Source: Lytechinus pictus
Lineage: Eukaryota
Assembly (NCBI RefSeq): GCF_037042905.1
Contig: NC_087251.1
Span: 24,058,001-24,122,000, forward strand
Length of the DNA stretch: 64,000 nt
Direction of reading: 5' to 3'
Both the position numbers and the translations under genes were made by a program. The notes below the pieces were generated by a model. It worked only from the letters and a program-made list of their open reading frames with translations, ran no database searches and was not told the DNA's origin. This document shows positions 20,743-50,946 of this stretch, in pieces. Within the stretch, counting starts at the first letter, position 1; the number at the start of each line of letters is the position of its first letter.

Positions 20743-20778
20743 TTTAGAAAACGCAGAAAGTGTAGAAAATGCAGAAGG
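20743..20778 (+). CDS. NRXN: candidate 36-nt cassette exon (FRKRRKCRKCRR) near start of LNS3
   Basis: gttacag|TTTAGAAAACGCAGAAAGTGTAGAAAATGCAGAAGG|gtaagt; phase 0-0, in frame. Confidence 0.5.
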
Positions 20779-22192
20779 GTAAGTTTTTAAGCATGAAAAA
20801 TATTCAGGATCCTTTACAAGAATTATTGCACCAATTGATGCAATGCTTCTTCCTTGTGAAGAAGGCATGCACTTTCTTCCTTAAAACTTTTCACTTTCTG
20901 CTTGAAAAATAGTGTCCTTCGGAATAAAGAGGTGGGCCGTTTCTTTTCTGACTATAGTAGAAATATTTCCATCAAGAATACAGGAAGTCGTAATATTAAA
21001 TAAGTTATTTATTACAAAGCATTGTCAGGATCACATAAAACTTTAGAGCACTTAATTTTTTTTCCAGAAAAACAACAATCGCCATTGACACTAGAATCCA
21101 CACACAAATCTATATAGAATTGGCTAGTGAATTAGTCATGCTTATATTTTAATGAAATTCTCAGAATCGTGTTTCAGTTCTTCTTTAATATTACCAATCA
21201 CTTAGAAGTTTTCTTTTTTATAGTGGTAGTATAATGATATTTTTGAATGCCTTCCCTGGATAACACTCTTTAATCTTGAGCTAATGATTGGATGGTCTTC
21301 TTCGCACCTCGTCTGCTCCCAGCAGAAATTTGCCCATCCATCTTTCATCGAATTGTAATTGCAAACACCAACTGCCACTCTTTTCTCTTGGCATCAAGAT
21401 CACAAAATATATAGTTTGTCTGCTAGTAATGTCAGTAGGTTTACCAAAGTATAGACGAAATGTTGTTATGTCTCTGCTTTTATTGATTATAATAGAACAA
21501 TATGCTTAAATTTTATATTCATTAAAGAAGTTATAATGCTAATGATATGAGATTTTCCCCATCGGCAACACTTTTTTTTCTTTGGACTGAGGTTGAAAAT
21601 TTTTCATTTCATGAGGAATAAAGGTATGACTAGCAACTACAAAGGGGAGGGGGTAGGCATGAAGTGCCTCATTCTGATAATCATTTGCAGAATTCACAGT
21701 TACAACATTCAACTTTTCTATGAAATAAGTTCAGAACTTTTATTCAGTGATATTAAAATAATGGATATGAAGTCTAAAGAATGAAAAGAATACTTGAGAT
21801 ATTCCATATTGGTTTAATGTGAAAGTGTACCAAACACTGCAAATGATAATATGTATCTGCTAAATATTATACATTTAACACCAAAGAACATCATCTGTAC
21901 TTGTATAAATGTCAATTATTTAGAACATAAAGGAAATAAGATGTATTATGGTTTTCATCTGGAATTGAACTCTGTGTTGGTTCTGTTTGAGCCCTAATAA
22001 ATTGTATATAATACAATCATACATCATATACAAAAATGTTGACTTTCAAATATTATTATATCTTGCATCAATTCTATAATGCTTAAACATTTATTTTTAT
22101 ATCATTTATCTTGTGTTATCATTTTGAGTATTTTGTTTCCAACTTGATTGAAAGTAAAAAAACACTTGTGGTTTTGATTTTTATTTTATCAG

Positions 22193-22231
22193 CTGAATAG
22201 TGCAAGTGATATCGCCCCCGGTCAGGGACAG
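22193..22231 (+). CDS. NRXN: candidate 39-nt cassette exon (LNSASDIAPGQGQ) near start of LNS3
   Basis: ttttatcag|CTG...CAG|gtaaac; phase 0-0, in frame, GC-rich island. Confidence 0.5.
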
Positions 22232-23106
22232 GTAAACCAAGATGAATTGATCATTTTTGTTATTTTGCCTGGATTTTTAACAATTAACTCATTAAATCAT
22301 GGAAAAAAACATTGGATTCTACATAACCCATCGAAAGAATGAATCATTTACTAAGTGACCATAGGGTGCTGAAAATATAACTTTTGTTCAATTAATATTG
22401 ATATATAATTAACACATTGATGATGTTAATGATTAAATCTCACTCTCAAAAGCATGCAGCAACTGAAATTGTCTTTTCCTTGAATTTCTCACATTTTGAA
22501 TATTTTAAAAAAAATCTCATGTAGAGATTCTTGATTTGTGTTAAGATTATGCACCATTTTTTCTGCATGGAGGAAAATTTCCTTTTTTATTTTTTCACCA
22601 TTCACTGAGATTCCTATGATGTCCTTATAGATGATAAGTTTAATAAGGATATTTGCTGTTTTAGGTGTAGATATTGATTAATTACTTTTTAATTATTCAT
22701 AAGCATGTATAATTGATATTTTCAGATAGCATGTCAAGAAGGTATTCTTTTATGATAGTGTTTTTGTGATGATTTCTTCAGATTTCTTTTGTATATAAAT
22801 TTACCTAATTATTGATTTTTTTATCATTATGATTCAAATTTCTCTTTTATCTTCAAGAATATTAATTTAACTTTTGTTGTGTGTTGACATCTTTTTCAAT
22901 CACTGAATGAATCATTGATAGACATTTTTGTCTCAAATCATTTTATCTTATTTACTTCTTGTTTATTTCTAATATTGCCAGTACTCTTGAGTTAAGTTTG
23001 ATTTGCATGAAGCAAACCTCCAAATATGTGAAGGCAAATCGAGTACAGCCCATTTACACAGTTGCAAGGCAACTTTCAGAGAATGGCAGGTTCTGATATC
23101 ATGTTA

Positions 23107-23387
23107 AGGCTTGGTCCCACTGCACTTACGGATGCAGAGAGGATGTAAAACGGAAAAGAATCTTGCCATCCATTGGAATACGTTACGTATCTGTTGTGTA
23201 CTCTTTACAAATGTGTTTCATACGCTCTATATCCATCAAGCATCCGTCCACTGTTATTTCATTGAACACCCATTTTTGTCCATTGTCTGGAGCGGATGAA
23301 AAAGGATGGAGCCACGCCAAAATTTCGCTTGTCCGCTGTATCCGTTATGAATACGTTTTGTGTCCGTCGGCCAGTGAGACCAGGCAT
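23107..23387. mobile_element. Harbinger-like MITE
   Basis: TIRs AGGCTTGGTCCCACTG / CAGTGAGACCAGGCAT; TTA flanks. Confidence 0.7.
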
Positions 23388-26380
23388 TTATGTTCTTGGA
23401 AACAGGTTCATATTACCTAATCTTGACAACAGTCAGGATCCCTGCCCCCATAAAAATCTAACAATATAAACCATGTGGATTTCTGATTTAAAAAATCATA
23501 CCGAGATTACATATTACAGAATTTAAGGATTTGGTTCCAGCTGCTCTGTCTTACCTGAGAAGAAATTTTGCAAGGTGAATTTTGTATAGTCTGTGCAATT
23601 GGGGTATAGATTTGGGTTGAGGTATTTGCATTTATTGATTGTAATCTCTTGACTCTGCATCCCAGATTGAAATAACTAAGTTACACATTGGTTGTGTATA
23701 TAGAGGATGTTCAAAAGGAAAAAGATAGAGTCAAAGTGATTACATTCCATTTTTGTGCATTTTTTTACTTTTTATATCTTATCTTGGAGTAGCATAATGA
23801 AAAACATTCACAGCCCAAATTTGGTAGTCAGTGGGGCCTGAGATATGATCATACAAATACCTTATTAGCCCCATTGAAAGTCAATGTATTATTGACCTGG
23901 TTCTAGACAATGTCTCCTCCAAAATAGGAAATGAAAAAAAAACAATGGAATGTGGAAAATCATGATGTCATATTTCAGTACTCAATTCTATCTGGTTGCA
24001 ACTGCTCCATTACCCCCACCCCCTAATCCGTTATTCATCATGATACCATATCAGATGTTTAACCCATGTTGGTGTGAACAATCATGAATGCTATATCCTT
24101 CAACTCCTCTACATTCAGAGCTACCAACCCTCTAAATAACTCAACAAACCAAATCCATGCAAAACAGTAATAGCAGTTCACTGCACTATCGCAATCAGCG
24201 GCCAGATCCGTCTACATGCCAACAATTGGAGGCATATCGCATGTCCCGAACAAATGCCTTGATTGATGAAATATGACTTGAAACATGACTTCTGGTCAAA
24301 GATTTCTATGTCTATTTCAGGACCACGACACTTTGATCATTGTGAATGTCGTGCCATCTCAAATCCGCAAGGAGTAAGAAAATATCAAGGAGTATATTTC
24401 CCTCTTTGGCTAGTATGATCAGTATAACAGTTGTGTAATCATAATAATACCATTCTGACGTCATGTTTACAGCATTGTAGAGATCTTTAACAGCTATGTC
24501 TTGATGACAATTCGACATGTAGATGATAATGTGACTTTTGTCTACTCTTGTGTTATATTTCACTTGTGATATGGTATTTTTCTATTGTAGTGCCACATCT
24601 CAGATGTGAATATGATATTTTCACCAAAAATGCAATGGACTTGACAGTCATTTTAATATTTTTTCCCCAGTCACCAGGTCATTTAGATGATGTGTGTGTT
24701 CTATCCCACCGCTGCCACCAAATGTTTCATCACCATGTCCTCAAACCATCACTAGAGGTTTTTAGCAGATCAAGGAAAATTTTGAAATAATCACATTTAA
24801 ATGCTATTTTAGAAGGTTGAAAGTGTAGTTGAATTTAACTTTTGATAGTGTGTTTGTAGTGCATTATCTCAGAAATTGAGACAGACTGCCAGTTCAAAAT
24901 TACTTGACCATGTTTTTCATGTGTGTTTCATTAATGTTGACTTTGGACACATCGTTAAAATGGTGACAATGAAACAACAACAACAACAACAAAACCCCTC
25001 TCTGATTTGTCCTCTTCTTTCAATCAGCATATCAAACCCAATCTGTCTGAACTACAGTGTCATCACTTAGAAATCCCAGTACTAAAAAACACCCCATTAG
25101 CAATTCGGAGCACGATGAGCAAGAGAAAACGAGGAGCGGATCTTCGGCCTCTTAAACTAATTTTTGAATAATTGATGCGGCTGATGCATAATTTACAGGT
25201 CACACATGCTTTTGCAGTTCTCCAATATCAGTGAATAATTGAGAGTCTCTGTGTGTTGATATTGTCTGATGTATGGATGAATGCCTTAAATCTAGACTTC
25301 TGATATCCATCTCCCAGCTGAAATGACTGAAATTTATTTACAGTTGAAGAGATATGTATTAAATGACAGAGGTCAGACATTTGTTTGATTAAAATAAATT
25401 AATGAGAATCAACATGCGATAAAGCCTTGCAATATCTCCATTTTGGTTTTGACCTTAGAAAACAGATTTGTAAACGAAGGCACACGAATACCATTGAGTT
25501 TTTCTTAATTGTATTCAAGTGATATAGAAAATTATCTATAAAATCTTATCCAAAACTGCTTCAACTCTTGGGCAGGAATTACTGAGAAGTTCAGCCTTCA
25601 ATTTTGTTTTCTGTATATTCATTTATTTTAGTTTTTGATTATTTGTAATATTTGATATTTCCAGCATTTTGTCATATTAAAATGCAATACTGCTTGTTAC
25701 TGTTTTAGATGGTCTCTTATATCCATTGTGAAATTGAAGTTTTCTAGACAGTAAAAAATTGATGTAATGTAAATTTATATTTTTCCACTTTTTACAATAA
25801 ATTTTGAAAGTTTCACAATTATAAGTCGACACAATGATTTCTTTGTAGGGGATACTGTAATTGCAAATAGATTTTAAAGCAGATTATGCCAACTGAATGA
25901 TGTTTTAGAGATTTGCACTTGAGCTCCCTACATTAGATATGCTCTATGCACTGTAGATTCACTGTGACGATCATTAATCATACAACCATGATCCTATTTA
26001 GCATTCAACTCTGCTCTGATTTATTATTTTTCTTGGTGCTCTCTAGAATCTTGAACACATTAAAGTAGGTTGGACACTGACCCCAGCAACTGTGAACTAT
26101 TTCAGTTGCAATATACTCTGCCTCTGAACTTGATTTTTGCCTTTGTGGACATATGGTATATTGAAAATGTGTATATCAAAGCTTCTCTATAAAATTACAG
26201 CTTAAGATATTTTGGGAAAACAGTTTCTTCTCAGTAATAGTATCTATATATTGCAGACACAATTATTCAGTACATTAATATTGTTTTTTTTTAACCAATT
26301 TACATACAGTGATATCATGAAAAAAAATTATTACCAACACTTCTTCATTCACAGAACAGATATACAGATATATAGAAGTA

Positions 26381-26590
26381 CCAGTGTGTTGGCTCAGTTG
26401 GTAGAGCGTCCGTCTCACAACCGGGAGGTCGGGGGTTCAAACCCCGGCCACATCAGACCAAAAGACGTTAAAAGATTGGAGTTGCTGCTACTCTGTTTGG
26501 CGTTCAACGTTCAATAATCTATTGGGCAAAGCAAATTTTCGGAGTATTTCATTTCATGTCTATTTCGAACAATAAAATATGGATTTTCAT
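26381..26590 (+). mobile_element. tRNA-derived SINE (Meta-domain-like core)
   Basis: A box TGGCTCAGTTGG and B box GGTTCAAACCC, tRNA-like head with CAC anticodon loop, then CCAAAAGACGTTAAAA...GCTGCTACTCTGTTTGGCGTTCAAC; no poly-T terminator after the head. Confidence 0.75.
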
Positions 26591-29543
26591 GGTCATTTTT
26601 TTTTTCATATATCTATAATTTGGGGTCCATTATAAATCATTAATGTGATTAAAAATGCTGATCAAGTAATAGTTTGGAATGGACATTAAAAATAGAAGAA
26701 ATTCACTGGATTTATGAAATATTCCTTTAATATTTGGAATAATAATATAATATTTGAAACTACTGTTTAGTCTGTTATTTTGATCTATGCCAGTTTTCTA
26801 TGTTTTGTATTCCCACTATGATTCACAATCTGGTATTAACCAGTGATGCATAAAAAGCCTGGTGTATATTTGATGAAGGGCTGACCATAAAAATTGCCCA
26901 TGTCATTAAACATTCAGCGGATTTATCCCAACATTGATCCCTGTGGGACCCCGCTCGGTTAGCTGAGCTGAGATGACTGGAAATTGGAACACAAAATGGT
27001 GGTCAGAATTTCAAACCATTTGGGATTAAGGGAGAAAGAGGAGATGAAGGGTAGAATAAAATGAAGTATGGTCGTGACAAGAATAGTATATAACTACCTT
27101 TGAAAGATGAATAGAAATTCAAAGCTTAATGGTCAATGAGGCTATGGGCAAATTGAATCTACAAATTGATATGAATAAATAAAGAACCGATTGTGAATAT
27201 TTTAATATCTAATATAGACAATTCAGAGATATAATAGACAGTATTGAGGGCTTTGAACATGAATTGTGGAATGTGGAATGCATTCTGTCATTGCAAACAG
27301 GGACCAAATTCTTTCAGTCAAGAACTTAAATATACTTATCTGTGATTTGAATGTACCATATACTATGATGTGGATGCATCAAGAATTTTATTATTTTAGT
27401 TAAATCTTGATACCATTCCCACTGATATTCTTGAATTCAAATTAACTTTTGCTAATTGCAAATATTTGACTTCCTTTTTAGAATGATCATCCATTCAAGA
27501 AATGCTAACCAATTTAGTTTGAAATAAATCACCTTACATGGGTTTATTATTCACTGTTCCTTAAAGGGCTTGACTATCAAACATCAATTTCTTTCAACTC
27601 ACTCTATTCCTGAAACATGGCCTCTTTTTAAAAAATTCAGCAGTGTATGGAACATGACAGCATTGTCACGCGGCAGCTATCACTGTCCTTATAGTGGGTC
27701 TTTGTAAGAAAGGTCGCTGTAACTTACGTTAATTGTGCCAGGGTGTTGGCAAAGCCTGCCCTCTTTGTACCGAGTATGAAGATGTGTTTAAGAAGTAATG
27801 GAAGGTGAAGGCCAGAACCTCCTCTGCAATTGATCTATGAATGAGAGGTCACAATCACAGCGAATATTTTAGGGGCTATAAGGGAAAGGTATAGGATGGA
27901 AATAACCCTGTCTGAATATGCCACTGATGCAGTTTGATTGTGTAAAGGTAGTCAGTCATGTGTGGACTATTCATTTATTATAAATTGACAAGACTGTAGT
28001 TCTCTGCCATCTCAGATAAACTATGCAAGTTCAGGCTTTGCTGGCTAATTACAGCCCCACCTTAAAACATTGCATGTCATATTGCATAGAGTTTGTTCAG
28101 TCTGATCTGGTAAGCAGTTTGTGAAAGACTACATATGATCAAGGAGTGGTCCTATCAGAAACGTGTCACACTGTCCACACCAAGTAATAGCTTCTGAGGT
28201 TTATCTCTGGGTAGTGTCTTTCTGATTCCTGTAGCCAGTGATATATTACTTGAACATCACCCACGCCTTGAGATATACAGGGTGCCTCAGCAAAAAGTTT
28301 TACCTCTCAGATCATGTTACCAGTATGTAGAGACTTTCATCAAGCAGTGGCCCTTTCCAGGATTAGACTCGCATTACAATCTTGATCTTGGACCATAAAG
28401 CCAAAGTCTGCAGATAGACAGAATGCCTCACAGATTGCAATAGCTTTTAATAAATGTTCTTGATACATCTTTATTGTACAAGGTGCTCTCTGTAAAGGTT
28501 CTGATGTTTTTTTTCCACTTTTGCATATTATACGTCTTTAGATATGTCATCCATGAAGAAGTAGTGTATTCTTAAGATAAATATTCTAGATCAAGTGATA
28601 TTTCTTTCCTATCTTTTAGTGATGTAAAAATGAAAAATCATAGCCCTTGGTTAAACAGGATATCTTGGCAAAATATAATGCCATTCATAATCCATATGAA
28701 AATCATGATATATGAAATGAGGCAGTAACCAGTAAGTTGAATCATTCTGTGTCTAATTCAAATCTTTAAAGAATAATGGGCAGAATTCATTCATTTAATT
28801 ATGAAATGTAAAGTTTGTTTTACAATGTACTTCTCAGGAATTGAGAATTTTCATATCATATAGTACTTTACAGTGATGTTCTATCCCCAGAAAAGTGATT
28901 TCTATGGATGTTATTTCCATTCATTGCATGATTACACTTAATTGATTATGCCATGTTATTTCAGTAATGTATAAATATTCAAATTTTCTGTAATTTCTCC
29001 CACATTTCATAGGATTTTACTTTACAGTGACTTTTGTACTTCACATGTCTGCATAGTTCTGTATGAATATGTACACTTTCAATTTCAATGACTTAACTCT
29101 CAGTTAATATCTCACTTTAACTTTATGAATATTTCTTCATAATTGGCATGATTAATTGCATGTAACCAACTTCAAAATTTTTATAGTATAGAATTTTTCT
29201 TAGGTTCTTTCCTTCATTCTGGGGTTTGCAATATTGTAAAATCATGTTGCATTCCTTGTCTATTGTTTAGCTAACAGAAGAAGAGAACTGCATACTGTAA
29301 GTTAGAATGTGATGACTGGATCTAAAACATTCTTCGGTTCAGTCGGTTAATTCTTTAATTTCACAGTATACATAATTGAAATCATGAACTCTTTCCACAC
29401 TGCCTTACAAGACAAGCTGTCGTAGAGGCACCTTAAAAATGTTGATGCCATTTTTAGCCGTGGCTTTTTGCTAGAACCCCACTTTTCATTTTCTCCTTCA
29501 ATCCTCTGATTCCTGCAGAGACGAAACAATGCTGGATCATATA

Positions 29544-30085
29544 CCGGGGGGGGGGGCACTCAACCAAAAAAGTAGTAGGTATGTACCGCGGATGAGACAA
29601 AAAACGGGGGCCTTGGAGCGGGCTTATTGTAAAAAGGAGGGTCCTCGGAACGGGGTTCGGAACTACAATGTTTGTGAAAACGGGGGTCCTTGGAACGGGT
29701 TGTCTGCGTGTGAGTGCGTATGCATCCCTATGGAACGTGCATGCAGCTAGCCCGGCGGCACGGGCGCCGGGTGCGCTAGCGCAGAGGCGATGGTCGGACA
29801 GCGCTCTACAGCCGCTTTTCACAAAAATTGCGGTTCATTGTAGCAGATCAATGTGGACGGAACGGCGTAACAGAAAATATGTGAAGCTTTGGAGCGGATT
29901 TCTTTCTTCTTTTTTCTTGATAAGAAGAAAATGCTATGCTTTGGAGAGGCTTTCTTTGTTCTTTTTCTCAATAAGACAAAAATGCTATGCCTTGGAACGG
30001 AAATTTGAGTGTAAAAATGGGGGTCCCCTCCACGGCACATACCCACTATGCATTATATACTGAGTGCCCCCCCCCCCCCCCCCCG
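29544..30085. mobile_element. MITE with poly-G/poly-C TIRs
   Basis: CCG(G)nCACTCA ... TGAGTG(C)nG termini; 8-bp TSD ATCATATA. Confidence 0.85.
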
Positions 30086-30403
30086 ATCATATATCTGCTC
30101 TGAAAGCTTTAAAATCCATTTTGAGTTCAAGCTGCACATGTAATTTTTGTCAGAAATTTTCTGATGACATCAAAGATACTTTTCCGATGTTGTTTTTAGG
30201 TTTTAATATTTTAGGATAATCAGTTGTAGACACAATGCTATCTTATGCTTGGGATGTATCCCTCTTGTTCATGCATATTAACTTTCTCTTTATTTTATGT
30301 TTGAAATATGTTGTTTTTCTACTCCCTCAACATTATGGATTAGTGAGAGGGGTACTCCTCCTAGTTGTTATGTAACCCCATTCCTATGTAATTCACCCCA
30401 CAG

Positions 30404-30643
30404 ACTGAAGGCACTCTCTCGCTTAGCTTCCGTACCAACGAGCCATCAGGGGTGATCATGTACAACCGAGGTGCCGATCACATCACAGACTTCTTTGCTC
30501 TGGAGTTGTTGGATGGCCACTTGTACCTGGTTCTAGATCTAGGATCCGGAGCTATCCGCTATAGGGCCGATTCCCTTCCTCTCAACGATGGTCTCTGGCA
30601 TTCTGTTGTGCTCTACAGACATCATAACAGAGGAACATTACAG
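30404..30643 (+). CDS. NRXN: alpha-neurexin exon (LNS3)
   Basis: cacag|ACT...CAG|gtaaac, 240 nt, phase 0-0; GTLSLSFRTNEPSGVIMY...DFFALELLDGHLYLVLDLGSG...LNDGLWHSV laminin-G motifs. Confidence 0.95.
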
Positions 30644-31065
30644 GTAAACGTGTGATTGGTTATCAGTGATGACTTATTTGTCCATATGGTCCACCAATAA
30701 CAATTTAGGTAAAGGTAAATGTGATGTGTACTTGTCAAAAGTGTGAGCCCCATTTAGCTATGGCTTTTTCCCACTCAGCAGTTGTTTCCTGCCAATTCTC
30801 CAATTCCTGGATCTGATGATAAATCTGGAATGCTTCATAAGATTCTGCATGTGGTTAAGCCTTGGACATTCCTGTAAGTTTTTTCATATGATATTACCCA
30901 AATTGGTATTAATATCATTAGACAGAGGACTTATTTTGACAAAAATTTTGCAGTGGAGAAGAGAAAACATTGACAAAAAGTGATAGATATTGATGTGTGT
31001 CATCAGGATAAGATATAAGTTATCATTCTCAAAGTGCTTTTCCCAATCCTTTTTGCTATTCCCAG

Positions 31066-31319
31066 ATTGATAATCGAGACCCGGGCAAGTTTAACGTTGG
31101 AGGTACAAGTAAGCATCTCAATCTTGTGGATCATCTGGTGCTTGGAGGAATTGATTTTGAGAATGATTCAAACTTCTTACCAATGGACTTGTACAGCGGG
31201 GCGCTACGGAGGGGTTATGTGGGCTGCCTCAAGAACCTGGTCCTACAAGGGACAACTATTGATCTTCCAACTTATGCTATTGAACAATCTAATGGGAACG
31301 ACATTGGAGTCTACTGTAG
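31066..31319 (+). CDS. NRXN: alpha-neurexin exon (LNS3 end)
   Basis: cccag|ATT...AG|gtaggt, 254 nt, phase 0-2; ...LVLGG...GYVGCLKNL...VYCR. Confidence 0.95.
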
Positions 31320-31907
31320 GTAGGTGTATACTTACATCTTGGAACTGAAAAAAATCTTGTATAGTCTGTTGCAGAAGACTAGAGTTTACATAAACTACAA
31401 AATCAAATGCATGTCCAATTGGAGGTAACGTTTGGGGTAATTGCAACTCTCCGCACCAGGCCTCTGGACTACTATGTTGTAATGTGTAAAAAGTAGATTA
31501 TTGCAAAATCATGTTAAACAGTGTGAGGAGCTACCACATCTTGTCTAAAAATATTCAATAATCCATTGTTTTTCCCTCCCATTTTTGGGAACAATAATTT
31601 TCATTTCATGTGCTTTAATTGTTCATTGTGATTTTATTCGAAGAGTAACAGTCCCTATTATTTCTGTTTACTGGCGTTTAGAACATTTTTGTGTTTGTTT
31701 TCTTTTGCTATTGTCTGATAATTGAAAGAAAAGGAATTTAATTGGTGGTGAGCAAATACCTGGGCCCTCATTTTTTTTTCATTTGAAATGCACAAGAATG
31801 GTGCATTTGCAACCAGGAATATGATAATGATAAAGGGATAGGTGTTTTCTTTTGGAGTTTTGTTGAATGTCTTATAACCTAGTCTTTCTGATCTTTTGAT
31901 GATGTAG

Positions 31908-32029
31908 GGAAGAAGAAGGGCAGTGCTCTAGCACACCCTGTAACCATGAAGGAACTTGCACGGAGGGCTGGAACAGGTTCATCTGTGATTGTCGTATAAC
32001 TGGCTATACTGGAAAGACATGTGACGAAG
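31908..32029 (+). CDS. NRXN: alpha-neurexin exon (EGF2)
   Basis: gtag|G...G|gtaggt, 122 nt, phase 2-1; QCSSTPCNHEGTCTEGWNRFICDCRITGYTGKTCDE, six-Cys EGF with the neurexin GWNRxxCDC signature (not in ORF track). Confidence 0.95.
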
Positions 32030-34960: not shown

Positions 34961-34978
34961 TGTTCACCGAGGAAGGAG
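34961..34978 (+). CDS. NRXN: candidate 18-nt microexon (VFTEEG) between EGF2 and LNS4
   Basis: ctaac branch point, UGC-studded pyrimidine tract, cag|TGTTCACCGAGGAAGGAG|gtgagt; phase 1-1, in frame. Confidence 0.7.
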
Positions 34979-36185: not shown

Positions 36186-36512
36186 AGGTAGCACGACTGT
36201 CCTTCAATGGTAACCAGTACATGCGCATCACAGTATCGGCAAACTCGCGCAGCAAGGTTGAAGACATCTTCCTCAGGTTCCGCACTCGCTTCCCAGACGG
36301 CCTCCTGGTGGCCACCTCCTCTGATAACGTGATTGACATGCTGATGGTGGAGCTGAAGCAAGGATTGATACGGGTGATCACCAACTATGGTATTGGTCAG
36401 ACGGTCATCACTGCAGGACACGGGCTGGATGACAATCGATGGCATGCTGTTCATGTCCAGCGGCGGGATGATCGTCTTATGGTCACTGTGGATAATACTG
36501 ACAGAGCCGAAG
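36186..36512 (+). CDS. NRXN: alpha-neurexin exon (LNS4)
   Basis: tacag|AG...G|gtaagg, 327 nt, phase 1-1; LSFNGNQYM...EDIFLRFRT...LDDNRWHAVHVQRR. Confidence 0.95.
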
Positions 36513-38055
36513 GTAAGGGCCACTTTCTATTAAAGCTTTCTAAACTTATATTGTATCCATTTCTAGTTATGTATTGTTTATCTGGAAACTCCTACACTTG
36601 TACAAAATGCTATGATATGCATTCAATTTGGCTGGATTCTCTCTCATATATATTTTGTGTGTTTTTTTAATCATTATTATCCAAGACATTTCATTCATTT
36701 CAGTATAATGGATTATAAGGATGACAAAAAGAGAATGTTTCTGTAAATATCCATGTGATTATACCTGCTACTGAATGATGATCTCAATTATTTATATATC
36801 TGTCTTTGTGAGCTTTTCTTTACTTTTCTCTTTCTTTCAACAAATATTTTGAGATTTTTTTCCATTTAATTAAAATTTTGATAGTTGACAGGTAGTTCCA
36901 ATACAAGATTTAATTTTTTGATGAAAGTCACTAAATGGCATCATATGTTATACACATAGCCCATAGAGCTCAGTGAGTTAAAGAAGGAATTCAAAGCCAA
37001 AATGAGAAAACATAATGATTGTGATCATGAATTACATTATAATGTTGTTGTATTATAAAGCCTGAATCTTCCTTAACCCTTTGTTTCCATCAAATTACTA
37101 GTACCTTTTTGAAAGTATTCATAAAGTACATCTACAAATTTCATTAATTATTTAGTTTTATATATTCCTCTACAAGATGGTTTAGTTTGATTAAACAGAA
37201 AATTCTGTTCAAACACTAACGAAGAGGAACTTTATATCATCAGCATACCAAAAGTTACTATTAGGAAAGTCTTCCATCCAACAAATGTGACAAGTCAATA
37301 AACCATCTCATGGCGATTACTCATTGTCAATTGATATACTTGGATAGAGTGTAGTATATCCTATGCATGATCCAAAAGGGAAAGATGAATATAACTATTT
37401 TATTATGGCTCATCTAAATGCTTTACAGGTTATTCTTTCATATGCATAATCTCTTAGTCATATCCCTGTCTATCTTCTCTTTCACTCTCATACAATTTCC
37501 ATTTTGTTTCTTTTTTCCAATATTGTAAATATATCATTAACTGTCAATTTCTTTTTACCAGATATAAAGTTTTCTTCTTTCATGCCATCATCAATTATAT
37601 ATAGATAATGGGACGATTGTCTTTATATATGATTGTAATCATTATTCCTGTGTGTTTCCAGTATCATCTGTTCTGTTATTTAATCACTTTACATATATAT
37701 ATCAGAAGTTTTATCCCAATAGTCCCATATGCATCATGTCATGTTAGTCATGTATCTATAGACTCCCTGTACATGTAGTGGTTCCCCAATGCATTCCAAA
37801 TTACTTTTTCTCAGTGTTTGCTTTTCATATCTTTTATCAATTCAATCATAAACATTTTAAACTGTAAAAAAATGAATTCATTGCTCAGTTGGCTGCCAGT
37901 AAATACAAAGATACATATGACCTTAAACAAAATATGTCATAACAAAATATGCTCATTAATGTTTTGTGTGTTCAGTATTAATTTTGCTTTTATTTCAAGA
38001 CTTTATTCAATAAATATTTGGGTTCAAGTTAAATTTATCGTATATGATTCATTTA

Positions 38056-38133
38056 AACTGCAGTTTCTTATGATGTCATTTGTTTGATGGAACTAACTGC
38101 AGTTTCTTATGATGTCATTTGTTTGATGGAACT
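38056..38133. repeat. perfect 39-bp tandem duplication
   Basis: AACTGCAGTTTCTTATGATGTCATTTGTTTGATGGAACT x2. Confidence 0.9.
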
Positions 38134-38799
38134 GAGCAATCATCATTGAAACATTTTTGTTTTCATTTGATCAAAACGCTTCAGTTAAAAGCTTATGTTT
38201 CTTTATGTCAATGTACTAACATTTATATGTAAATGAATTTGTTCAAATACTAACAATCTAGTTTATTTATCTTTACTTTCACTGAGAAGCAGGAATGAGA
38301 GCACACACAAAAGAATATTAACAAGTTATTTATCTGAAAATGCTTTTACATGTATCTAATTATAAATTTTCTATATATCTTAGTATTCTTATCTCTCTGC
38401 CTCTCCTTGGAATAAGTAGGCCTGTTGCAATTTTTTTTTAATCAGAAAGGAGAAATTTAACAATTAAATTGAATGGATTTTTTTTAGGTTGAATGTTTTC
38501 CTCTTTCAGAATGATATGCTTATTTCTAAAGATATATTTTTTTCAATAGTTTTCTTATGCATTTGGATTAATTAATGGTCAGATGTTGACTTTTGCACCT
38601 TTATTTTCATGAATTGATATTGAAATTTGAAAATTTGAAGAAAAAAAATAATGATAAAGATAAAAGATTTTGAGCTTTCTTGCTTCAAGGTAGATTTGGT
38701 AAAGATAAATCATGTAAATTAAGTTTTGTCAAGGTGTCACATCATGTTTATTTTTTTATTTTTCTCCCATTGCTAAAACAATGATAAATCTTTAAACAG

Positions 38800-38823
38800 A
38801 TAATGTGCCTCCTCGTCCTGATG
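38800..38823 (+). CDS. NRXN: candidate 24-nt microexon (DNVPPRPD) in LNS4
   Basis: aacag|ATAATGTGCCTCCTCGTCCTGATG|gtgaga; phase 1-1, GC-rich in an AT-rich intron; acceptor tract only moderate. Confidence 0.45.
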
Positions 38824-40810
38824 GTGAGATCATTTAAAGAACAATCTCAAAGACTTTGATAGTCTGCTTGGAACTATTTGGAATGAAGTTTCTTCTTTGT
38901 TCAATTAATTTACTGATGAGGCATGATATTCTGACAATTTTGACCTTTCCTTCAATTTTTATTTGTTCTCTGAGTACGTACGAGGAATGTCAAGTCACGA
39001 ACAGATCAAATGTGATCAGTGATTTCTAAGTTTTGTTTTGAATTTTACACACAGTCTGAGTTATATTTCAGACTGTTCTATTCTTTTTAAAGAGAATGAA
39101 TAACACAATCCGACACAAATGCACCTTAATCACAATTCTCACAATAGATAACAACACAGCACAAAATTTCTGCATGATTTTCAAGCATGAACCTGCATGG
39201 CACATATAGATGGATCAATGCTTGCAATTAAAACATCATTTTGCATCTATAGTGAGCGTATGCTGTTTGCATTCTCTTCTTTCTCTGTTTGTGACTTATT
39301 AATCTTTTGAACTGTAATTTCATATTTTGACGGATATAATCAATTTGAACAGGGCATGAAGCATGCTTATTCAAACTTACCATTATTATTCTACTAACAC
39401 AACTAACACAGCCTGGACAATTGATGTCTAATATTGTGTTCATATATATTCAACTTTGTTGATATAGTATTAGCATGCTAACTTTGAAATTCAATTGACT
39501 ATATTGTGTCACTTAATTTTGGAAATATTGAAACTGGTTTTTGTTTTCATTTTGATTTGAAAACAAACAAAATTAATCTATCAATATTAACTCATTGTAA
39601 ATTGCAATGTTGTTATTTAAGATTTTTTTTCTGAAGAGGACTTTGAATGTTCAAAAAGGAAGATCCAAATTCCATATCATATTTTGTGCAATACAATTTA
39701 GAAATGAGCCTTTTTCATTAAGAATAAGTGGGAAATTAAGAATTTGAAGGAGAAAGTCAAAATTAAGTGGGGAAAGAAGTTTTATTTGTAGGTTTATCTT
39801 TCTTGAAAAGAATTTCTGTAAAATTTCTTCTTTTCTTCGATTCAACCAGAATGGATGCTGCCTTCCAAAACATTGAAAAGCTGCTTCCTTCTTGAACTTT
39901 TTATAGAATGGTTGAGAAACCAACTTTCAACCTCTTTTCTAATTCTTACTACATTTCTTTCTGAAAAGATAAGCTGGAAAATGCTAGATATCATTTTTCT
40001 TGTTTATGCTATGGTTCCTTTTGTCAGGTCATCTCAATGCGAAGTAAATAATAAAGAAAGATACACAGTTGAATGCCTTGTTCCAGAATCATTTTTGTCA
40101 TGGAATGGCCTCTGATACACTGATGTTTAAAAAAAATGAGTCATCATCCATTGTACACAATGATATTGACGGTCTTATATTTTGATGCAAAGTTTGAAAT
40201 TAAAATATTTTGAAGAACTTTTGAAATTGAGGCTCACTTTGAATTTATCAAAATTAGTCTATAATAAATTAGTATGATTGTGAATTCAGTAATATATATA
40301 AGATGTAAAGGGCCCACTTGAATACTAGGATGAATATTATGACTGGGCCATCTTTTTCTACCATTGTGAAACAAATGTTGCAAATAGAATAAATTTAAGG
40401 TTTTTTTTCCAAGTTGATTCTTAGTTACTCATATATTTAGACAAGTCGAGGTCTGTTTATGACATATATAATTTTATCTGTGAATCATAAAGTTTCATCT
40501 TATCTTCCCTTTTCTGTTACTGGAAGTACTAAAGATATCTTATGTCAGTAGACATACTATTTTGAATAAAAGAGGTCTAAATCTTACCTTCATCACAAGA
40601 ATACTCTTTTAAAAAATAGTTTAATGAAACTCCAATAGTCCGAATGCATTATAAATTACAAACATTATTTTGGAAATGTTTATTCCATGACAACTGAAAC
40701 ATATGGTGAACCTCAGTTGGTAATTGAAGTTTTACTTTTCGATAATTTTGAAATATAAAATCTGAATCTCTTTAAAAAATTTTGAATTATTTTAAAAGAT
40801 ATATATTTTT

Positions 40811-42443: not shown

Positions 42444-42464
42444 CATTTAACATAACGTACGGAG
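42444..42464 (+). CDS. NRXN: candidate 21-nt microexon (AFNITYG) in LNS4
   Basis: ttctcttctcccag|CATTTAACATAACGTACGGAG|gtgagt; phase 1-1, in frame. Confidence 0.68.
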
Positions 42465-43405: not shown

Positions 43406-44173
43406 TGAGTGAGAATTTCCAGAGTGGTATCCTTGATTATCATTACATCGAGGTCGGAGGGGCTGCCAATCGTGACAGCATGCCAGATAACCCTGTCAAC
43501 TTTGTTGGTCACATGGAGCAGTTCCTGTACAACAACCAACCTTACTTTGACATGGCCAAGGCACGAGAACTTGATTACATCAGATTAAATGCGACCTTTG
43601 GTGAGAAGATGAGTCAGAGACCGAAGGTCAACCCGTTCACCTTCAGAACGAAAGAAGTCTTTGTCCAGCTGGAGACACCAGACTCATATCCAGCCCTGAC
43701 GCTTTTCTTCCACTTCAAGACGACGGAGCCCAATGGTCTGCTGCTCTACAGCAGCGGTGGCCGCACTGACTTCATCTCAGTTGGACTGGTGGCAGGACAG
43801 ATACAGTATGCCTTCAACATGGGGGCCGGACCTGTCAAGATCCATGCTAACACACCCCACAAGCTCAACGACAACAAATGGCACGAGGTGTCCATCTCAA
43901 AGAACAGCGTAGGTCGACATGTCCTGCAGGTGGATAACTCAATGAGTATTGCTCAGCCGTCATCCAAGGCAAGACATCTAGACCTGACCGAGAACCTTTA
44001 CGTTGGTGGAGTCGCTACAGATATGTACGAGGACCTACAGAGTGGAGTGGAGGCCAGGGTAGGCTTCCAGGGATGCTTTGCATCTCTAGAAGTCAATGGC
44101 AGGAAACAGGATCTGGAGGACTCAGCTATCAGCATCGAGATGGATAAGTCCAACCTGAAACGTGGCTGTGAAG
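43406..44173 (+). CDS. NRXN: alpha-neurexin exon (LNS4 end + LNS5)
   Basis: cacag|TG...G|gtatgt, 768 nt, phase 1-1; LFFHFKTTEPNGLLLY...LNDNKWHEV...LDLTENLYVGG...GFQGCFASL...RGCE. Confidence 0.96.
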
Positions 44174-46506
44174 GTATGTTGTATAATATTCCCATCACCC
44201 ATTTTTAGAGTAAAACAAATTATTGCAGAAGTATTTTCCTATTACCCCCCCCTCTTTGAAAACCAATCCAATGTCACTTTTGTTGTTAGAAATGACTCTG
44301 ATCACTGCTATTATGTTTAACACTATCTAGTGTTGGTGTTCACATACTTTGCTCTTCAATTCGGTATAAAAGATCTCTGACTCGATACTTCATTTTAATT
44401 TACGTCACTAGTATCCGAACCATTGCAAGTGGTGTTTTGTCTGGTGGAGAATGTCACTTATAATAAATATGTATCCCACCGCTGCCACTGTGTCATTACT
44501 GAACTAAGTAAACCAACACAAGAGGTACTACTTTGATCACATCTTAGTCTAATTTATTAAGCCACAAAACCAAGAAAGTAACATCACCAGATGGCACCAT
44601 ACACCACAGCAATCTGTCATTACTGACAACACAAGTAGCACAAGGTCTTAACAACATCTCTTAAGCAATTTCTAAGGAGTATGTAACCATAAATTTTCTG
44701 ATTGATTTTTTTCTTATTTGGATGAAGTATTGCCTTCAGTTGCAGCCAAAATACGACTATTGTTTACATATAGCTCCTTCCATTATTCTTTGTATCACAC
44801 AATATGATATGAAACCAATAGTTTATTATTTCTATCATCTGTAAAAAAAAAGTGACTCTAGGTATGGATTACACTTTATGAATATTTTTTCTATGAGTAT
44901 TGTTTCTTTTTTATATGATCATTGGAATCAAGAAGGAAAATCAGTTTCAGAGAGATGTGTAATTAGGAGTAAAATGAGTAGGCAAAACAGAGAGCTGTTG
45001 TTTCAGAGTAGAGTGTGTCCTTCAAATGACAGTTGTATCAATACACTTGTCTAGTGACATGAGAGAAGTTCCTCATCTTTGAAATATCAAGAACTACACA
45101 AGTTTTTCAGGAAGAGAATATTCTGGAGAAATTTATGTTTCATCCTCTAAGATATAGCAAAAGTCCTATATTTTCAACTGTGTTTGAAGTTCAACCAAGG
45201 TTTGGAAGCCAAGTCTATCCCATCAATAAGTTGAGTTGAAGAAAAAAAAGGAAAAAAATGAAACAAGAATAATGCAAAGAGAATGTCATCAGTATCAGAT
45301 ATGTGATAACAATGAAATATTCAATATCTATTTGTTTTTCTCCAATAATGTAATACAGGGTTTGACATCCTCTTGAATATATTAAATCTTCACAATTGTC
45401 ACTTACTGTAATTCAGTTGAGAACTTCTTCATCTAGTGAGAAGTAGGTATCATCAGCTCCCTGCTTATATACAAAGTGACCATCCAAATTTGAATAGCAT
45501 CTTGTATGATTACAACAACTTGATTAATTAAAACCATGGTTTATTAAAGATAAGGGCATTTTTATCATGTGCCTTTCTCATTTTTTTCTCCTAATTTACA
45601 TTGGAAACCAAGCCCCCCCCCCTGCCCCACCCAAACCTACCCTTGAGATCAGAGCTCCCTTTACATTGCAATATTTTTTATTGCTCGCTGACAATAGAAA
45701 GATGATTTTATAATTTCAAAGATGAGTAAGAGACCAAATGATGTTATGAATCAATAGTCTGTCAGACAGAATATTGATGATTCTCTGTCTATCTAAATAT
45801 CCTTGTTTGCTCCTGAATAAACAGTGATTTATCATGATAGTTATGCTGTCTTATTGATTTCACATTGGAGTTGTATTATCCCTATTGATTCTCAAAATGA
45901 ATCTCCATTGTTTCCCCAAAATCCTGCCACCTTGTAGATATCTTTTTATAGATTTTCAAGAAGTCAGTTTGATTTCAAGATTGAAAATTTCTGCTAGTCG
46001 CAGCTTGGCATTTTTAATTTTCTCTGATATGAAATTTTTTTAATTTATAGATATTTAATCGACTTGATTACCAAGTTGATAAGATAAGTTTGTTGAAGGA
46101 ACAATTCTTAATAAAACAAATGAGATGGTGGATACGTGTTACAAAAACTATAGCAAGAATGATAATTAATGATGATGTATTCTACAGCGCTAACTCCACA
46201 AAGTCAGGCTCTTATGGAACTCAAATAATAATTCTTTAATACAAAATTGTCCTGCATTCATGAGTTGACAAATTGTACTTTAAATTCACTTCTTAGTAAG
46301 ATTTGTATTTTGTTCTTATAAACAATAGATTTATTTTATAATTTATTTGATTTACATTAAGAATTTCTTGGCTCAGAATAAGTCTACAATATGATTTGCT
46401 CTTCTAAAGCCTGGGTCATTCAAGATTCATTATTGTAGAGCACTTAATTCTAATGAATGATAAGCACTTTATTATCATTTCTTCCCTCTTTCTCATCTTT
46501 AACTAG

Positions 46507-46626
46507 ATAATGGGGATCTGTGCCTAGCTGATGTATGTGCTAATGGAGGCCTTTGTATACCAGGTTGGAATGGATATAGTTGTGATTGTCGGATGACCAG
46601 CTTCTCAGGAATCAATTGCTCTGAAG
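46507..46626 (+). CDS. NRXN: alpha-neurexin exon (EGF3)
   Basis: actag|AT...G|gtgaat, 120 nt, phase 1-1; LCLADVCANGGLCIPGWNGYSCDCRMTSFSGINCSE. Confidence 0.94.
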
Positions 46627-47240: not shown

Positions 47241-47419
47241 TGAGTACATCCTTTGGTTTTGGTACTGGTGGTGGTCTCATCTCATTGGAGATACCTGAGT
47301 CTCAATGGTTACGGACAGACCATGATGATCTCAGTATGGGTGTGGCTACCAGGTCAGCTAATGCCATCATAGCCCGCATCGACAGTGCTACTTCTGACGA
47401 CTACATTGAAATGGAACTG
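47241..47419 (+). CDS. NRXN: alpha-neurexin exon (LNS6 part 1)
   Basis: cccag|TG...CTG|gtaaat, 179 nt, phase 1-0; FGTGGGLI...ARIDSATSDDYIEMEL. Confidence 0.94.
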
Positions 47420-48042: not shown

Positions 48043-48214
48043 GTAAATGGTTATCTCTGGACCATGTACAACTTTGGATCAGCTGACCACATGATCAGTG
48101 ATGACGTCAATCGCATCAACGATGGCGCATATCACGTGATTCATTTCTCAAGGACCGGGGCCAACGCTTCTCTGCAGATAGATCAGTATGCTCGAGTTTA
48201 CAAGACACCGAAAG
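48043..48214 (+). CDS. NRXN: alpha-neurexin exon (LNS6 part 2)
   Basis: ttaag|GTA...G|gtagaa, 172 nt, phase 0-1; INDGAYHVIHFSRTGANASLQID (neurexin [23 protein letters not shown]). Confidence 0.94.
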
Positions 48215-48610
48215 GTAGAATATACAATGAGAGTAATAATACCACATGCTGTTCTTATTACTACCTCATTGCTTTTTGCACTATTGAAACCAATATTTTG
48301 AGATGAGAAGGAATAAATAAACTTGCAAATGCTGGATGGTAACAATCATACTATGGTTTTAGACAGTTCTTTGATCAAAGTTGTAGATCCTTCCTTCACA
48401 GAGTTTAAATAAATAAGTTTTAAATTACTTTGCAGAAAATTTGTATGGATGGGTGTATTAATCACATCAGAAACTTCCTGGTCCAAATCATTTCTCTGGT
48501 TCGTCATGATACTTTTCTTATTCTTACTAACAAAATTTCTACAAGAAATTGCACAAGCAAATTTTCCCTGGTAGTTCAAAGAAATAATTGATTGATCCAT
48601 CATTTGACAG

Positions 48611-48981
48611 GCAAGCAGTCTACATTCTTTGATGACCAGGCAATGATCAACCTCGGTGGACGTGGTGATATCAGTGAAAGCAAACGAAAGAGGAGAAGAA
48701 GAGCGCCTTCCTCATCTCAGTTTGAAGGCATGATGTCTGGTCTCTCATACAATGACATGAGAGTACTAGATATAGCAGCGTCAGATGACCCACGCATCGT
48801 ACTCAGCGGGAATGTAGGTGAACTCCAGAATCCAGAGAATTACATCTATGGCTCACCGATACCAACAACGTCAGATGAGAGCACTATCTACCGCATCACC
48901 ACCACCAGGAAGACACCGGTATTACCACCAATACTCAATATATCAAGTACAGCAAATTCAGATCTCACATCTCCAACAAAG
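48611..48981 (+). CDS. NRXN: alpha-neurexin exon (LNS6 end + S/T-rich stalk)
   Basis: gacag|GC...AAG|gtaatc, 371 nt, phase 1-0; GKQSTFFDDQAMINLGG...FEGMMSGLSYNDMRVLD then Thr/Ser/Pro-rich. Confidence 0.9.
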
Positions 48982-49063: not shown

Positions 49064-49217
49064 TAGGGGAGATCGGGGTAAGTTGAAACATTGTAATTTT
49101 CTTTAACGCCTGTAAAATAAATTTATGCAATACTGCCGTCAATTTATTTTACAGGCGTTAAAGAAAATTAAAATGTTTCAACTTACCCTGCGTTCCAACT
49201 AACCCTGATCTCCCCTA
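49064..49217. mobile_element. palindromic MITE (Tc1/mariner-pogo-like)
   Basis: TAGGGGAGATC...GATCTCCCCTA; inner ~48-bp near-perfect inverted repeat. Confidence 0.75.
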
Positions 49218-49576
49218 CCTATAATATGATAAAGGTTATTGAATCTTATTGGTAAATAACAAGTATAGTGTTTCATTTGAATAATAGCAGAATAAAACCA
49301 ACAGTGGATTTTTATCAAAGTTCCAAAAGAGGCCTTTGAAGTAGATTTTAGATTGTGCATGAAAATAATGCACAATAATATTCAATCCCTGAGTGGCTCA
49401 AATTGAATTATAAACAAATATTCTTTCTTGTGGGAAGTAAAATATCCATATCTTCATAAGTGTTGATGGAAGTGTGTTATTAAAGAATTACATTGTACAA
49501 AGTTTTTGTTTTATGGATATTGATCTCAATCATAAAATTAAACCATCTCAATTTGTGCATATTTCATCTTGAATAG

Positions 49577-49700
49577 ATCACAATGTCAATAGCACCTACA
49601 TCCGATGGTGAATACACACCTGATGATCAAGATATTATATTTGTAACTGGATCTGGATGTTTGTCTGATGTTCCAGAGGACTGTTCTCCACAAGCTGCAG
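49577..49700 (+). CDS. NRXN: alpha-neurexin exon (stalk, HS-site/Cys-loop 1)
   Basis: aatag|ATC...G|gtaagt, 124 nt, phase 0-1, bridges the phases of the flanking exons; DDQDIIFVTGSGCLSDVPEDC (not in ORF track). Confidence 0.9.
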
Positions 49701-50934
49701 GTAAGTTAGGGATATCATGATGACGTATACTCGGGTGTCTAGGAGTTCCCAAAGGGGTGGGTCCTCAAAAAAGTGGGACATATGCCCCCTTTGCCCACAG
49801 TTGAGACATACAGATCATCGGCGTTCATCCGAACTGTCGTATTAGTAAATTTTGGTCCCAAAAAAAAATTGATTTTGAGATTTTTTGCAGAAAATGAAAA
49901 AGTCCTATTATATTCATAACTACATTTCTAGGCAGCAATTTATTTTAGTTTCTGAGATATTTTGAGTTTTTCATGGCGATGCCACGCAAATTGTTGATAA
50001 AATGCCCAAATCCCATAGGAAACGTGTACTGTAGCAAAGCAAACAACAGCTGCGCGCACTTAATTTGCAAATGCGCGGTCAGTCTTACCGTCGTATCGAC
50101 ACTGCATTGACTTTGCACATGAAAAAAAATGATACTACGTTTTGACTGATCGCGCGCATTGACATCATGGTTAGGGTTGTTGTATCCCCCTTTTTTTTTT
50201 GTACAGGGAAACTCTCAACCGCAAGTTTCGGATGACCGCTGAAAATATGGTTGAAATTGATCATCTCAATGAATGTGTAAAATGTATGGGTGTTACCAAT
50301 TGTTAGCTTATAAAACAAAGTCACAATCATTCTATTGAATATAAACTGAATGAATAGCTAATGTACCTAAGTGATATTGATAGGGTCCACTGAAAGAAAC
50401 TTGCAATTGCTTGCATTGTTATATTGGAAACTAAAATCAATCTTATTTTTTGCAATTGAATTCAAATTTGGAATCAGTTGCTTGTTTGCTGCTTCCTGCA
50501 GAAATGCTTAATTGTGTTGGTATAATCATATTTCCTGTATCAGCCATATTTTTTTCATATTCACAATATATATCCAATTGTTCATGTTTTAAAAAATCCA
50601 TATAGCCTTTCTACAGATGAAGGGATGTACTATATCACAATCTCCATTTTAGAAATCATATTTTTAACATGCATGTGCTACCAATTAAAATGATTGTATT
50701 CATTTGATTTCTTTGAAAATTTGAATTCTTATATGCAATTAAGAAGACCAGTGATGTGAGAATTAGCTATATTTTGTTAGATTTTACAATTGGATGTTTA
50801 ACTTTTTTTATAGACTTTTATTTTCCTTTATTTATTATTGTTGCTCTTTAATGACTCAGTTACATCCACTTTTTTTAAATCTTGCCACAATATTGATCAT
50901 TCATTATTTTGTTGCATCATCTATTTCTTTACAG

Positions 50935-50946
50935 TTACTCCCAGAG
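50935..50946 (+). CDS. NRXN: candidate 12-nt microexon (VTPR) in stalk after Cys-loop 1
   Basis: ttgcatcatctatttctttacag|TTACTCCCAGAG|gtaaac; phase 1-1, in frame. Confidence 0.5.

Follow-up and report, generated by a model that had tools for sequence, protein, structure and literature searches.

Introduction

Short splice inserts in the neurexins determine the binding of synaptic partners in vertebrates, and the data presented here bear on the age of this principle. The alternative splice sites of the vertebrate neurexins are numbered SS1 to SS6 (Ullrich 1995; Treutlein 2014; both cited in PMC10084454). Among invertebrates, the available portion of PMC2570956 describes many alternative splice sites in honeybee neurexin I, mostly in LNS-coding regions, with variants that have truncated LNS domains, fewer repeats or alternative C-termini. 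The neural microexons of the SRRM/eMIC programmes are placed, in the abstracts, in a size class of 3-27 nucleotides (nt), and the accessible text of PMC8797185 describes eMIC targets that carry UGC motifs near the 3' splice site and a long pyrimidine tract, and fly and mammal programmes that have almost no exons in common. Here we examine an alpha-neurexin gene of the sea urchin Lytechinus pictus in a window of 64,000 nt (positions 24,058,001 to 24,122,000 of contig NC_087251.1, assembly GCF_037042905.1); all coordinates below are those of the window, and all features lie on its plus strand.

In the introns of this gene the initial annotation had pointed out six short segments of 36, 39, 18, 24, 21 and 12 nt, bounded by AG and GT, and had read them as a hidden microexon code of optional inserts that the lineage may have built independently, with up to 2^6 conceivable combinations, and that may answer to SRRM proteins. 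Our analysis indicates that the gene probably contains a set of short cassette exons which keep the reading frame and by which small peptides are gained or lost at the protein surface, although the make-up and the history of this set differ from those first proposed.

Results

The largest open reading frame (ORF) considered (43444-44184) returned neurexin matches, the top one being a neurexin-3-like protein of Strongylocentrotus purpuratus at 95% identity, and the 90% cluster of this match holds five isoforms of S. purpuratus, five of Lytechinus variegatus and L. pictus models. A gene model of the window was derived by tblastn with L. variegatus isoform X1 and by reading of the splice boundaries, and its exons are lettered A to M. 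When exons B to M are spliced with three annotated microexons, they encode 1160 residues that are colinear with L. variegatus neurexin isoform X1 and differ from it by six mismatches, which points to that species or a very near relative of it. The repeated LNS(LamG)-EGF-LNS ectodomain is present, with Pfam Laminin_G_1/2 matches on exons A, C, D, F, G and J and EGF matches on exons E and H. Exon M gives a Syndecan-domain match, and the translation ends in EYATKEWYV followed by the stop; the terminal ..KEWYV we take to be a PDZ-binding motif. In an AlphaFold2 (AF2) model of the orthologue from Diadema, which was built from 32 aligned sequences and has a mean predicted local distance difference test (pLDDT) score of 73.9, with domains mostly above 85, a transmembrane helix spans residues 1049-1081. 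Its domains and the colinear 1160-residue model identify the gene as an alpha-neurexin, as the initial annotation had it; the window covers the gene from the end of LNS2 to the C-terminus.

Five of the six segments could be placed unambiguously, whereas the 24-nt one had been given without coordinates; the range originally noted, 20743..50946, begins exactly where the 36-nt segment starts and stops exactly where the 12-nt segment ends. Each of the five has AG and GT at its borders, a length divisible by three and a frame without stops in the phase of its intron. The four protein positions named for the inserts (the start of LNS3, the hinge between EGF2 and LNS4, LNS4 itself and the stalk) proved correct by alignment. 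For the 39-, 21- and 12-nt exons both included and skipped forms occur in RefSeq isoforms, which bears out the idea that they are optional, while only the skipped form is seen for the 36-, 18- and 24-nt segments and the last of these is without support. Since RefSeq already models three of the six in isoforms from Lytechinus and S. purpuratus, the code can hardly be called hidden.

The 21-nt alternative cassette exon (42444..42464, phase 1) encodes AFNITYG, which includes an N-glycosylation sequon, in a loop of LNS4. It lies between constitutive exon F (36186..36512), which encodes the first two thirds of LNS4 (Laminin_G_2 profile 1-76 of 126), ends in ..VDNTDRAE and is followed by a phase 1 intron, and constitutive exon G (43406..44173), which encodes the remainder of LNS4 and LNS5. 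Isoform X3 lacks the insert in L. variegatus and S. purpuratus alike. At the same junction, alternative inserts are found in Asterias rubens and A. amurensis (AYNVSIG), in Apostichopus japonicus (AYNITQGR) and in the hemichordate Ptychodera flava (GPSMPTG), and the crinoid Anneissia japonica has two tandem alternative inserts of seven residues, NLTSTDS and AMNLTSG. Most of these inserts carry an N-x-S/T sequon, and those of echinoids, asteroids and holothurians are alike in sequence (A[FY]N[IV][ST]..). Judged from these alignments, the LNS4 site is common to at least four echinoderm classes and a hemichordate. The sites are older than the sea urchins, and the proposal that this lineage built them independently is not supported. 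A search of the LNS4 intron for a second sequon-bearing microexon gave seven other open segments with N-x-S/T, all with poor signals (for example 38995-39018, score 4.97 on the scale described below), and these were rejected.

Exon F ends at position 76 of the Laminin_G_2 profile and exon J at position 78; the introns after both are in phase 1, and each junction comes after the short strand that follows the ..TVD/..QVD strand. Because of these near-equal profile positions, the shared phase and the same strand context, we propose that the ambulacrarian LNS4 site would be the LNS4 counterpart of the SS4 loop of LNS6.

In the stalk, the 12-nt alternative cassette exon (50935..50946, phase 1) encodes VTPR and lies in the L-M intron, the one that opens vertebrate SS5, downstream of constitutive exon L (49577..49700), which ends in ..CTPQAA and is followed by a phase 1 intron. 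In L. variegatus as well as in S. purpuratus, isoform X2 lacks VTPR, and the alternative VTSK is found at the stalk site in two Asterias species; the stalk inserts are alike (VT.[KR]). The 39-nt alternative cassette exon (22193..22231, phase 0) encodes LNSASDIAPGQGQ, in the loop before the LSLSFRT strand of LNS3. Its neighbours are constitutive exon B (17029..17205; end of LNS2 and start of LNS3), which ends in ..PKWMAK and is followed by a phase 0 intron, and constitutive exon C (30404..30643; LNS3), which begins with TEGTLSLSFRT. This exon is present in L. variegatus isoforms X1-X3 and X5 and in both L. pictus models, is skipped in L. variegatus X4, and is absent from all five S. purpuratus isoforms. 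Conservation at the protein level is seen for the 21- and 12-nt exons, which by comparison of these sequences belong to an old ambulacrarian set, and is indirect for the 36- and 18-nt exons.

AG/GT borders, a length divisible by three and an open frame, on which the initial annotation had relied, are not evidence in themselves. The 11 introns hold 995 open, frame-preserving AG..GT segments of 9-51 nt. This is no excess over chance, since 100 shuffles that keep the dinucleotides give 950 +/- 32 and the antisense strand holds 965, and each host intron contains 8 to 23 segments of every exact candidate length. The segments were ranked with an ad hoc splice score, built on the splice-site consensus and not trained, which combines acceptor pyrimidine content and YAG with donor likeness to GTRAGT. 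Among the 995, the 18-, 21- and 36-nt exons rank first, second and third, the 39- and 12-nt exons seventh to eighth, and the 24-nt candidate about nineteenth. Two segments score at least 13.5, against 0.02 expected from the shuffles, and three (18, 21 and 36 nt) score at least 12.3, against 0.27 expected; three were reached in none of the 100 shuffles. Five score at least 11.4, against 1.56 expected; three of these five are the 18-, 21- and 36-nt exons, and the number of extra segments fits chance. The 39- and 12-nt exons score 10.59, a level at which chance yields about six segments, and the 24-nt candidate scores 9.97, where it yields about 12. The same strand provides a stricter null than the shuffles: it has 5467 AG..GT pairs of 9-51 nt, of which 18% are open and keep the frame, as do three of the four best-scoring pairs. 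Further open AG/GT segments outside the six, with scores of 10.5-11.4, lie at 24671-24691, 26047-26064, 35379-35402, 9593-9604 and 8414-8452.

The 18-nt candidate cassette exon (34961..34978, phase 1, cag..gtgagt) is unannotated and lies in the E-F intron, after constitutive exon E (31908..32029), which encodes EGF2 and is followed by a phase 1 intron. It would insert VFTEEG at the hinge. Its splice score is the highest of the 995 open segments and of all 5467 AG..GT pairs, with 0.02 expected at such a score, and about 100 nt upstream of it are pyrimidine-rich. Anneissia has an alternative 18-nt exon at the hinge (peptide RHTWAT), at which the junction codon changes as it would for a phase-1 exon, and the two agree in intron, phase and size; hinge inserts also appear in single models of Antedon (IPAWGP) and Amphiura (YVLRR). 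We regard the 18-nt exon as probably a real member of the cassette set, rarely included or tissue-restricted in urchins. Its acceptor can also be paired with a weaker donor 21 nt downstream (34961-34999), which gives a 39-nt segment encoding VFTEEGGECGTNM with a score of 10.44; this is a possible alternative donor.

The 36-nt candidate cassette exon (20743..20778, phase 0, cag..gtaagt), likewise unannotated, lies in the B-C intron, encodes FRKRRKCRKCRR and is built from two 18-nt tandem half-repeats; its score is 12.38. A protein model of Antedon has GQRCRECRGLSDDTF(EE) at the start of LNS3, the same site as that of the 36-nt exon, and the end of the urchin peptide (..KCRKCRR) can be aligned with it, RKCRKCRR/LN with QRCRECRG/LS, across the junction (slash) as far as the beginning of the 39-nt exon. 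Among 322 intron candidates, the peptide of the 36-nt exon gives the best local match to the Antedon insert, and in a six-frame comparison of that insert with 59,983 stretches of twelve residues, which cover the whole window, no other locus scores 32 or more. A region search with the Antedon insert returned two proteins only, and no insert at the start of LNS3 was found in the Anneissia, Asterias, Apostichopus and Diadema models. There is good reason to count the 36-nt exon, with slightly more assurance than the 18-nt exon, as a probable cassette member that is rarely included or tissue-restricted in urchins.

Transcript evidence was gathered over 20600-40599, a stretch that takes in exons C to F and the 36-, 39-, 18- and 24-nt segments (exons B and G and the other two microexons lie beyond it), from contigs of runs X1 and X4 and from the raw RNA runs X21 and X22, each sampled at about 6%. 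Exons C and E are both contained in contigs of run X1 (4623 nt; record 5) and run X4 (record 6), and because these contigs join C-D-E-F at GT..AG borders, without the three introns, they are transcripts; contigs lose rare variants, and runs X1 and X4 show the main form only. Contig pieces in the bin with the 18-nt exon have mean word depths of 1.62 and 1.24, values that are not assignable to the exon itself, and the contigs of the two runs have no piece on the 36-nt exon. Raw reads of runs X21 and X22 reach at most 0.9-2.1x depth on exon F, which is too thin to judge any microexon. A protein search for urchin fragments that span the junctions gave 82 hits. The six that were read (P0205, P0308, P0318, P0260, P0339 and P0363; 71-98% identity to the urchin query) are ORFs of exon size which continue into translated intron, as genomic DNA does, and are for this reason uninformative on junctions. 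No repeat of at least 40 nt was found within 20600-40599, and the 36- and 18-nt exons therefore lie outside the repeats of that stretch.

Several of these observations weigh against our interpretation of the unannotated segments and of the LNS4 insert. The 36-, 18- and 24-nt segments appear in none of the ten urchin RefSeq isoforms (L. variegatus X1-X5 and S. purpuratus X1-X5), and a pattern search found their three peptides in none of 365 collected proteins. The only urchin transcripts seen skip the 36-, 39- and 18-nt exons: the contigs of runs X1 and X4 join exon E directly to exon F, and two raw reads of run X22, the sole raw-read junction evidence, do the same. In these contigs the exon C piece starts at 30402, which fits an upstream ..AAG (exon B) and not ..ACAG (39 nt) or ..AGG (36 nt), and from this we infer that they join B directly to C. 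The splice score is an untrained, ad hoc scheme that rests on the consensus of YAG, pyrimidine tract and GTRAGT, and non-coding, out-of-frame decoys on the sense strand reach 12.1-12.4, on par with the 36-nt exon. The runner-up chance loci against the Antedon insert score 30 and 29, little under 32; the hinge peptides of different classes have no common sequence, their agreement being limited to position, phase and size; and the models of the relatives, those of Antedon and Amphiura among them, were generated by automatic prediction. The insert of a Holothuria-like transcript (AFKNTQEP) and that of Ptychodera are without a sequon, and the glycan reading of the LNS4 site is accordingly not universal.

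These points could be taken to mean that only the three annotated microexons are real and that the 36-, 18- and 24-nt segments are chance pseudo-exons never spliced into mRNA. Such an account would explain why the segments occur in no transcript, isoform model or protein fragment, and it draws further on the roughly 1000 open AG/GT segments expected by chance, on the decoys that match the score of the 36-nt segment and on the lack of conservation among the hinge peptides. It leaves aside that the 18-nt segment has the best signals of 5467 pairs and a crinoid counterpart in the same intron, phase and size, that nothing else in the whole window matches a crinoid insert at the same site as well as the 36-nt peptide does, and that the top-scoring pairs are open and in frame far more often than pairs in general. 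We consider it unlikely on balance. For the 24-nt candidate (38800..38823, encoding DNVPPRPD), a chance pseudo-exon is by far the most probable explanation. It was chosen as the best of 14 open 24-nt AG/GT segments in the LNS4 intron, and none of the LNS4 inserts of the relatives resembles it; an unspliced contig of run X4 (38621-39522, 898 nt, depth 7.4) crosses it. Over the same interval run X1 has a depth of 5.9, compared with 0 in the remainder of the F-G intron.

The two unannotated exons lie deep in long introns (13.2 kb for the 36-nt and 4.2 kb for the 18-nt segment), have strong signals and are missing from assembled mRNA, as would be expected if they were splicing stepping stones that are spliced out again and yield no protein. 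Recursive splicing of such deep intronic exons was considered and rejected, because no donor follows the 36- or the 18-nt acceptor: neither precedes a donor-like GTRAGT, unlike recursive sites. Both segments are moreover open in frame, and a coding insert similar to the 36-nt peptide is found in a crinoid protein model. This explanation is the least probable of those we weighed, and we continue to treat both segments as candidate cassette exons.

The link to SRRM proteins through UGC motifs is not generally borne out across the set. No UGC lies within 60 nt of the acceptor of the 36-, 39- and 21-nt exons, and the six acceptors together have five motifs within 40 nt, against about 3.2 expected from a background of 0.54 per 40 nt. 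The 18-nt exon has UGC at -34, -22 and -13 and a pyrimidine fraction of 0.76, the 12-nt exon has one UGC at -22, and the 24-nt candidate has one at -29. The UGC-rich acceptor typical of SRRM/eMIC targets is confined to the 18-nt exon and, in weak form, the 12-nt exon. The size class of 3-27 nt with preserved frame takes in the 12-, 18-, 21- and 24-nt segments, and not those of 36 and 39 nt.

On the fullest interpretation, all six segments would be neural, SRRM/eMIC-activated microexons forming a combinatorial code specific to sea urchins. In its favour are the sizes and preserved frames of the segments, the acceptor of the 18-nt exon, with a long pyrimidine tract and three UGC motifs as described for eMIC targets in the accessible part of PMC8797185, and the pair of tandem microexons that a crinoid carries in LNS4. 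The 36-, 39- and 21-nt exons, on the other side, have no nearby UGC, two of them exceed the size class given in the abstracts, the 24-nt segment is within noise, and the sites are common far beyond sea urchins. We judge this very unlikely, and favour a smaller and older set of cassette exons, of which the 24-nt segment is most likely no part.

The AF2 model of the Diadema orthologue shows the setting of each insertion site. The B/C junction falls in a loop right before the strand at residues 53-61, and the E/F junction in a linker of about five residues that leads from the last cysteine of EGF2 to the first strand of LNS4. At the F/G junction a short strand ends, ahead of the loop at 366-373, and the L/M junction lies in the disordered stalk. 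We propose that inclusion of the exons would alter loops and linkers and leave the folds unchanged. In LNS3, a basic Cys-x-x-Cys peptide, a 13-residue loop or both would be added just before a beta strand; at the hinge, six residues would be added to the linker of about five residues between EGF2 and LNS4, about doubling its length. LNS4 would gain a seven-residue loop, usually bearing a sequon, at the loop that may match the SS4 loop of LNS6, and the stalk would gain four residues in a disordered region at the SS5 position. By analogy with the splice sites of vertebrate neurexins, such switches would tune ligand binding and domain geometry.

The remaining exons of the model, likewise placed by tblastn and splice boundaries, are exon A, which ends at 2514, exons D (31066-31319), H (46507-46626, with an EGF match), I (47241-47419), J (48043-48214, with a Laminin_G match) and K (48611-48981), and the last coding exon M (53680..54236), which encodes part of the stalk, the transmembrane helix and the cytoplasmic tail to KEWYV and the stop. 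An open 132-nt segment with a cag acceptor and a gtaaga donor lies in the A-B intron (13958-14089) and matches, at 94-98% of amino acids, the exon directly before exon B in both L. pictus neurexin models, where it follows differing first exons. The segment may belong to an alternative promoter from which a neurexin beginning with LNS3 would be made, or it may stem from a gene model that was split. Within exon K (48682-48702) a constitutive polybasic loop, KRKRRRR, lies in LNS6 about 20 residues past the SS4 position. It is also present in S. purpuratus, has an Arg run as its equivalent in Diadema, is absent from the aligned fish sequences and comes out as disordered in the AF2 structure (residues 797-807); a convertase site and a charge patch are possible readings of it.

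The RNA data also contained other features. A contig of run X4 (depth 78.5) joins position 34569 back to 22246 with 11 other letters between them; no repeat of at least 40 nt connects the two places, and the contig is perhaps a chimeric one of low complexity. A tRNA-Val-like sequence (26384-26454, ARAGORN) lies within 25936-26602, an interval in which the depth of RNA and contigs is very high and mismatched joints are numerous, and which probably belongs to a tRNA-derived family of short interspersed elements (SINEs) transcribed from many loci. Repeat-like high depth is also seen at 22601-23934 and 29271-30604.

Discussion

Taken together, our data suggest that the idea of a non-vertebrate neurexin splice code was partly right, but the code predates the sea urchins, overlaps SS1 and SS5 in part, and is not generally marked by UGC. 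The 18- and 36-nt exons are probably real and would be new to the urchin annotation. A wider proposal can be made only tentatively, at a little less than even odds in our estimation: that the Ambulacraria have kept a neurexin microexon code of their own, over half a billion years old and at sites that are unused in vertebrates, with an N-glycan-bearing switch in the SS4-equivalent loop of LNS4, a switch of linker length between EGF2 and LNS4, and a basic Cys-x-x-Cys loop in LNS3. The 18- and 36-nt members of this code would be missing from the urchin annotation, and the ancestral SS4 intron would be without a cassette in the urchin. The observation is not new in kind, as invertebrate neurexin splicing and lineage-specific microexon programmes have already been described and half of what we report is in public gene models. 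The handles that it offers are a predicted natural on/off glycosylation site in LNS4, a variant of hinge length and two predicted exons.

A close comparison is with those gene models. Of the six segments, the 39-nt one (Lytechinus only) and those of 21 and 12 nt, and no others, are present in some and skipped in others of the RefSeq neurexin-3a-like isoforms X1-X5 of L. variegatus and neurexin-3(-like) isoforms X1-X5 of S. purpuratus. Other ambulacrarian models have alternative inserts of 21-24 nt in LNS4, of 12 nt in the stalk (Asterias) and of 18 nt at the hinge (Anneissia), with peptides that differ. Our literature search found no paper on these urchin neurexin isoforms. Honeybee neurexin I, as far as it is described in the available portion of PMC2570956, is likewise an invertebrate neurexin with many alternative sites.

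Compared with the SRRM/eMIC programmes as set out in PMC8797185, a paper in which neurexin and sea urchin have no occurrence, the urchin exons are likewise short and frame-preserving, and the 18-nt exon has the acceptor architecture described there. Most of the six urchin segments, in contrast, are without UGC, and neural, SRRM-dependent inclusion is here only hypothetical. The near-total difference between fly and mammal programmes, as given in the same text, fits neurexin sites that are specific to lineages.

For the comparison with vertebrates, sites SS1-SS5 were placed from aligned fish and bichir isoforms. At the SS1 position the urchin has two further optional segments after EGF1 (LIPQTQSEEA and PDEKEG), which lie upstream of the window. 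For SS2, an urchin intron position exists before exon A (in the window below 2350), with no insert known there; SS3 falls within exon F, at a place without an intron. The SS4 position is occupied by the J-K intron (48215..48610, phase 1, 396 nt), which is conserved in place and phase. A scan of this intron gave no usable cassette, and the best-studied switch of the vertebrate neurexins thus seems absent in the urchin. SS5 opens at the L-M intron, the home of the 12-nt exon. The sites at the start of LNS3, at the hinge and in LNS4 have no vertebrate counterpart in the aligned fish and bichir isoforms, so that the description of the urchin sites as mostly outside SS1-SS6 stands for these three, whereas it does not cover the stalk exon in the SS5 intron or the SS1-like site upstream of the window. 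In both lineages, short optional inserts are found in the same protein, in LNS loops, after EGF1 and in the stalk. This suggests that the sister group of the chordates uses the same principle of small optional LNS loops, linker and stalk inserts, mostly at other places, and that some of the ambulacrarian sites have been kept across classes.

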